From the NCBI RefSeq assembly GCF_054482525.1, contig NZ_CM137006.1: a stretch of 64,000 bases of DNA; one strand, written 5' to 3'. The notes beneath the pieces are model-generated. The model saw only the letters and a program-made list of their open reading frames with translations, was not told where the DNA came from and ran no database searches. Numbering within the stretch: the first letter of the stretch is position 1; every line of letters begins with the position of its first letter. Shown here piece after piece: positions 21,421-21,918 of the stretch. The position numbers were made by a program, and so were the translations under genes.

Positions 21421-21496
21421 GCGGGAATAGCTCAGTTGGTAGAGCACGACCTTGCCAAGGTCGGGGTCGCGAGTTCGAGTCTCGTTTCCCGCTCCA
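21421..21496 (+). tRNA. glyW: tRNA-Gly (anticodon GCC)
   Basis: gcgggaatagctcagttggtagagc...ttGCCaa...gttcgagtctcgtttcccgctcca cloverleaf. Confidence 0.95.
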
Positions 21497-21550
21497 GTTT
21501 AAAAGACATCGGCGTCAAGCGGATGTCTGGCTGAAAGGCCTGAAGAATTT

Positions 21551-21624
21551 GGCGCGTTAACAAAGCGGTTATGTAGCGGATTGCAAATCCGTCTAGTCCG
21601 GTTCGACTCCGGAACGCGCCTCCA
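21551..21624 (+). tRNA. cysT: tRNA-Cys (anticodon GCA)
   Basis: ggcgcgttaacaaagcggttatgtagcggattGCAaatccg...ggaacgcgcctcca. Confidence 0.95.
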
Positions 21625-21636
21625 CTTTCTTCCCGA

Positions 21637-21723
21637 GCCCGGATGGTGGAATCGGTAGACACAAGGGATTTAAAATCCCTCGGCGTTCGCGCTGTGCGGG
21701 TTCAAGTCCCGCTCCGGGTACCA
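21637..21723 (+). tRNA. leuZ: tRNA-Leu (anticodon UAA), long variable arm
   Basis: gcccggatggtggaatcggtagacacaagggattTAAaatccctcggcgttcgcgctgtgcgggttcaagtcccgctccgggtacca. Confidence 0.95.
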
Positions 21724-21765
21724 TGGGAAAGATAAGAATAAAATCAAAGCAATAAGCAGTGTCGT

Positions 21766-21790
21766 GAAACCACCTTCGGGTGGTTTTTTT
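21766..21790 (+). terminator. Rho-independent terminator of tRNA operon
   Basis: gaaaccaccttcgggtggtttttttg. Confidence 0.85.
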
Positions 21791-21918
21791 GTGCCTGCAA
21801 CTTGTCGTTACACCCTCCTTAATTTTTAATCACCGGCAAAGCCACTCAAAAAGTATCTCTGATACGGACCGGCATGTAAGATAGGTGCTGGCGAGTTGAG
21901 ATCCACAAGGAAAAGCGT

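Follow-up and report, generated by a model that had tools for sequence, protein, structure and literature searches.

A native glyW-cysT-leuZ operon with a very probably empty leuZ attachment site in a PCN033-like Escherichia coli strain

In the PCN033-like Escherichia coli strain analyzed here, the region between pgsA and yecA is almost certainly a native, uninterrupted glyW-cysT-leuZ operon in which the attachment site (attB) at leuZ is empty. The leuZ gene is a well-known integration hotspot in E. coli, and the same unoccupied state is found in ~70% of complete genomes. Each component of the locus has been described before, and empty sites predominate in the species. In what follows, the window is the whole 64-kb stretch of DNA that was analyzed, and coordinates refer to it unless stated otherwise.

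ARAGORN detected three tRNA genes in total across the whole window, all on the plus strand, and each of them scored above the Rfam tRNA gathering score of 29 bits (54-69 bits). The features of the locus are as follows:

20721-21269, plus strand: pgsA, the upstream core gene (from the list of open reading frames [ORFs]; annotated as pgsA in PCN033 and K-12)
21320-21347, plus strand: promoter candidate, sigma-70-like (TTGACT-16-TAGAAT; 10/12 matches in a consensus scan)
21421-21496, plus strand: glyW, tRNA-Gly(GCC) (ARAGORN; Rfam tRNA, 69 bits; identical to K-12 glyW)
21551-21624, plus strand: cysT, tRNA-Cys(GCA) (ARAGORN; Rfam tRNA, 54 bits; identical to K-12 cysT)
21637-21723, plus strand: leuZ, tRNA-Leu(UAA) (ARAGORN; Rfam tRNA, 58 bits; identical to K-12 leuZ)
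21664-21668/21676-21680: anticodon stem of leuZ, with the anticodon loop at 21669-21675 and the anticodon at 21671-21673
21668-21696: putative crossover-containing interval (anticodon loop, 3' anticodon stem, and variable arm)
21668-21800: attB identity block, unoccupied, which is duplicated as a direct repeat on integration (right end at 21790-21800, depending on the element)
21724-21790, plus strand: 3'ETS-leuZ, 67 nt identical to the K-12 ncRNA b4759
21742-21766, plus strand: predicted RyhB/RybB pairing segment in 3'ETS-leuZ (duplex prediction)
21766-21790, plus strand: intrinsic terminator of the operon (stem-loop and T7), from its fold; the annotated K-12 ncRNA ends at the same point
21791-21918: native leuZ-yecA spacer without inserted DNA, 128 nt
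21919-22584, plus strand: yecA, the downstream core gene (ORF of 221 codons with UPF0149 and SEC-C domains)

The order of the anticodons (GCC, GCA, and UAA) on one strand between pgsA and yecA matches the E. coli glyW-cysT-leuZ operon, and the comparison with K-12 MG1655 bears this out in full. The K-12 glyW-cysT-leuZ-3'ETS-leuZ stretch (b1911, b1910, b1909, and b4759) is identical to 21421-21790 at 370 of 370 positions and also has pgsA and yecA as neighbors; while the operon shows no difference, the flanking spacers differ by 2 substitutions and 1 indel, with one substitution in the spacer at 21791-21918. The three-tRNA cluster and the position of yecA directly downstream, as given in the preliminary description, are thereby confirmed. 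On the upstream side, the sigma-70-like motif would be a candidate promoter of the tRNA operon, ~75 nt before glyW. Over its 64 kb, the window has 6 mismatches to E. coli PCN033 and contains core genes only, from fliF to yebC. The GC content around the leuZ site is 0.50-0.52. Elsewhere, it dips to 0.38 at 26500-27499, in the ftnB-araF intergenic region, against a neighborhood of ~0.50; conservation of this low-GC region extends to the other E. coli loci that were examined.

The preliminary description had leuZ followed by a "clean terminator" at 21766-21790. The terminator itself stands, since the sequence folds into a hairpin with a 9-bp stem (21766-21774/21779-21787), a TTCG loop, and a T7 run that extends to 21790. 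What the description missed is that 21724-21790 is the K-12 3'ETS-leuZ with its RyhB/RybB pairing, so that the terminator forms the 3' end of an RNA with a function of its own. Judged by its identity to the K-12 annotation and by the literature, on which the identification rests, the stretch from leuZ to the terminator is a known sponge RNA and not an inert spacer. 3'ETS-leuZ is a spacer cut from the glyW-cysT-leuZ precursor that pairs with RyhB and lowers the RyhB level (PMC6191717), and it is one of three RybB sponges (bioRxiv 10.1101/2025.09.11.675593). Its release by RNase E, its binding to Hfq, and its sponge activity in vivo are taken from PMC6191717 and the works cited there. Duplex predictions with the K-12 small RNAs place nt 34-57 of RyhB on 21746-21766 (-26.1 kcal/mol) and the 5' end of RybB on 21742-21764 (-18.8 kcal/mol), and these predicted duplexes agree with the published RyhB and RybB pairing.

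Two automated searches were silent on these elements. A consensus terminator scan of 21100-22100 reported zero terminators; this result was set aside, given the fold and the K-12 annotation. The miss is probably an artefact of the scanning rule, with the predicted stem absorbing part of the T-run, and negatives of that scanner alone should thus not be trusted. In the Rfam search (E-value up to 1), no family reported 3'ETS-leuZ, and the matches besides the tRNAs were a sub-threshold, terminator-like STnc130 match (26 bits versus a gathering score of 55) and a chance IRES match.

The evidence that the site is empty comes from the copy number of the block and from its flanks. A 25-mer of the leuZ 3' end, searched across the whole window with up to 3 mismatches, matched only at 21699-21723. 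Likewise, a blastn-short search of 21637-21800 against the whole window returned the segment itself and chance matches of at most 12 nt, none of which fell in 21801-21918; the palindrome of the leuZ anticodon stem was visible as a self-match. No integrase gene, duplicated att block, or foreign DNA was found in the leuZ-yecA interval. The block at 21668-21800 is present in a single copy, and its native flanks are contiguous. With one copy of the block and leuZ abutting yecA, attB is empty. The absence of an integrase, direct repeat, or foreign DNA downstream, and with it the view of an unoccupied hotspot, is thus upheld by these searches, by the K-12-like spacer, and by the empty-site junction that runs from leuZ straight into yecA. 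The proposed test, a search of 21724-21918 for a duplicate of the leuZ 3' end, also came back negative; the place to look was misjudged, however, as the repeat left by an element would lie tens of kb downstream and not within that interval.

An empty site may be one that was never used or one that was vacated. Precise excision of a former element from leuZ is conceivable since integrase-mediated excision restores attB exactly, and about 30% of genomes are occupied; we nevertheless regard it as unlikely here. The sequence itself is neutral on this point; the leuZ/3'ETS allele is the common chromosomal one, equal to that of K-12, and not an element-borne variant. It is very improbable that a former element left a decayed remnant or scar in 21724-21918, such as a short att duplicate or an integrase fragment. 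The spacer at 21791-21918 is one base off K-12, in lysogens the same sequence forms the chromosomal flank beyond attR, and at 128 nt it is too small for a gene fragment; moreover, matches to leuZ or 3'ETS-leuZ elsewhere in the window do not exceed 12 nt. What speaks for a scar is that the site is used by many elements and that degraded occupants exist in other genomes, for example, an IS-riddled P2-like remnant in O157:H7.

The sole annotated integrase in the window is a 141-bp pseudogene fragment at 668-808 on the minus strand, 20 kb upstream of leuZ. Between fliE and yedL, it adjoins a gene for a leucine-rich-repeat protein (992-2131, plus strand); the O157:H7 homologue of this leucine-rich-repeat gene is annotated as the type III secretion system (T3SS) effector EspR3. 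The locus presumably resembles the intG/yedN remnant of K-12. The integrase fragment is an old decayed insertion unrelated to leuZ.

The use of leuZ as an integration site is evident from other E. coli genomes. Of 5,425 complete E. coli genomes, 3,781 had pgsA and yecA contiguous in a search with a 2-kb query spanning both genes, and in the remaining ~1,644, the megablast match broke at query positions 1090-1101, corresponding to 21789-21800. Some genomes align over 1,989 bp of the 2,001 bp at 20700-22700, reflecting a length polymorphism of ~12 bp between pgsA and yecA. Occupancy of leuZ by a prophage or island is about 30% among complete E. coli genomes, a figure that derives from coverage counts and sampled rows rather than genome-by-genome inspection and from RefSeq complete genomes, which over-represent O157:H7 and ST131. 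The 125-nt block at 21668-21792 occurs at 7,104 places in 5,424 genomes, which amounts to ~1,680 extra copies, with up to 4 copies per genome. Every interrupted locus that was opened contained a prophage or island bounded by a direct repeat of the 3' part of leuZ, and elements with a tyrosine recombinase lie at leuZ between such repeats. At least four element types use the site:

P2-like prophage, degraded, with its integrase adjoining yecA: O157:H7; attL-side flank in 522 genomes
Prophage of ~43 kb with its integrase adjoining leuZ: ST131-type strains, e.g., JJ1886; attL-side flank in 440 genomes
Island of ~32 kb, a defense island: DETEC-P61; attL-side flank in 553 complete E. coli genomes; NZ_CP116152.1, 1866000-1900000, locus ~230-31945
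mEp390-like lambdoid prophage: 2017C-4173W12; rare

The P2-like leuZ prophage of O157:H7 is an IS-riddled remnant. Besides two integrases, the ~32-kb island encodes an M48 peptidase, a pair of DUF262 proteins, a type I restriction-modification system, and Hhe, a 1,911-aa anti-phage protein. These defense genes, together with an attL flank found in 553 genomes, mark the leuZ-yecA junction as a defense-island hotspot as well. The lambdoid class is minor, as an mEp390-type query was covered to at least 80% in only 3 E. coli genomes. Two unrelated integrase lineages, P2-type (Int_N) and lambda-like (Phage_int_M), which are ~22% identical, act at leuZ. Previous reports place the Sakai prophage Sp13 at leuZ (PMC8190617) and describe a conserved prophage at leuZ in O121:H19 (PMC8767318).

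The boundaries of the repeats define what an element takes and leaves at this site. The direct repeat is 123-133 bp long; it starts at the leuZ anticodon loop (21668/21669) and takes in the terminator, ending at ~21790-21800. On the yecA side, attR starts at 21668 or 21669 in every occupied genome examined, that is, where the anticodon loop begins or one base earlier, and continues through the leuZ 3' half, 3'ETS-leuZ, and the terminator into the native yecA spacer. On the glyW-cysT side, attL comprises a full leuZ with an element-derived 3' portion that bears element-specific polymorphisms: (i) in O157:H7, an A-to-C substitution at 21732 together with shortening of the T-run; (ii) in the ~32-kb island, G-to-C and A-to-C substitutions at 21731 and 21734, respectively, and a deletion of 2 nt; and (iii) in 2017C-4173W12, a functional leuZ (locus L019, 2441-2527) that is a chimera, its 5' half coming from the host and its 3' half from the phage, with the compensatory T-stem pair C61T/G75A from the phage and a TACG terminator loop instead of TTCG. 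The assumption in the preliminary description that a tRNA 3' end is the hotspot is therefore right as to the hotspot, with ~1,644 of the 5,425 genomes interrupted, and too narrow as to the repeat, which is ~125 bp and extends from the anticodon loop through the terminator.

The presence of the phage T-stem pair (tRNA positions 61 and 75) in the attL leuZ of 2017C-4173W12 places the crossover 5' of 21697. Together with the repeat boundary, this narrows the crossover to 21668-21696, an interval in which strand exchange may take place within the anticodon loop. The idea that insertions target the terminator-yecA spacer independently of the tRNA, which would explain why megablast breaks after the terminator and not at the tRNA 3' end, has practically no chance of being correct and is refuted by the attR analysis and the chimeric leuZ, because the leuZ duplicate in each attR examined begins at the anticodon loop and a phage T-stem variant sits inside the functional leuZ of one lysogen, both of which put the crossover inside the tRNA gene. 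The break at 21790-21800 is only the end of the homology that each element carries.

Phages and prophages from outside the window show the same layout. Sp13 of O157:H7 Sakai and other P2-like (Peduoviridae) prophages use the leuZ attB, and their repeat spans the anticodon loop through the terminator; they have a P2-type integrase (Int_N and Phage_integrase) situated at the yecA end. Such prophages are absent from the window. In the free phages mEp390, where attP is annotated, and Fostie, the block serves as attP beside int/xis and is 88% identical to the E. coli block, and in the attP of Pectobacterium phage ZF40 (locus L010, 377-502), it is 80% identical. In all three, attP is a copy of the leuZ 3' half, 3'ETS-leuZ, and the terminator with its left boundary at the same anticodon loop, and it differs from the E. 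coli block by a compensatory T-stem change and a different terminator loop. In the ZF40 copy of 3'ETS-leuZ, the core complementary to RyhB is retained, and a G-to-A substitution there replaces a G-U pair with RyhB by a Watson-Crick pair; in the terminator stem of this copy, an A-T pair has become G-C in a compensatory change. Not all phage records holding the block are free phages. The RefSeq phage genome NC_049344.1 (Escherichia phage 520873; locus 3248-3931) begins with the host yecA and the attR leuZ copy, so this record is a prophage excerpt with a boundary that overshoots into the chromosome. Records of the vB_EcoM-569R10 type, with the block at the same offset (793-917), may likewise be prophage excerpts.

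These observations suggest the following course of integration. Recombination probably takes place in the leuZ anticodon loop or immediately 3' of it. Each element brings its own copy of the segment from the anticodon loop to the terminator, so that attL regains a complete leuZ, 3'ETS, and terminator, while the original 3' part of leuZ stays behind at attR beside yecA as a promoterless duplicate. Every integrating element sampled carries its own 3'ETS-leuZ copy. As the identity block spans the whole 3'ETS, each integration swaps the host sponge RNA and terminator for the copy of the element. No E. coli element copy examined departs from the host in the RyhB/RybB pairing segment, and the predicted duplex energies are identical; the copies differ 5' of that segment (21731, 21732, 21734, and the 2-nt deletion) or in the terminator loop. 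It is possible, but rather doubtful, that lysogeny at leuZ tunes the activity of the sRNA sponge in the regulation of iron and envelope stress, or is under selection to preserve it. The conservation of a 12-nt core in copies that are 12-20% diverged is suggestive only, as it is not statistically compelling and may mirror host sequences. A literature search found no paper linking leuZ integration to the sponge RNA. Such tuning would in any case say nothing special about the window, which represents the empty state.

The useful product of this analysis is a map in window coordinates, with attB from 21668 to ~21800, the putative crossover within 21668-21696, and the sponge RNA at 21724-21790. It also yields a rule for scoring occupancy: a second copy of the block, starting at the anticodon loop, should be sought tens of kb away beside yecA, as an occupied site is not recognized by a short repeat of the tRNA 3' end in the adjacent spacer.

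The closest known systems also include a class of tRNA integration sites at the anticodon loop, which was reportedly described by Williams in 2002. In that class, identity begins in the anticodon loop and continues in the 3' direction, which rebuilds the tRNA gene, and the symmetric anticodon stem flanks the crossover. The leuZ block has the same starting point and direction, the anticodon stem would flank the crossover here too, and the crossover interval proposed here fits this class. The leuZ block differs in also having to carry a functional sRNA sponge and the terminator of the operon.
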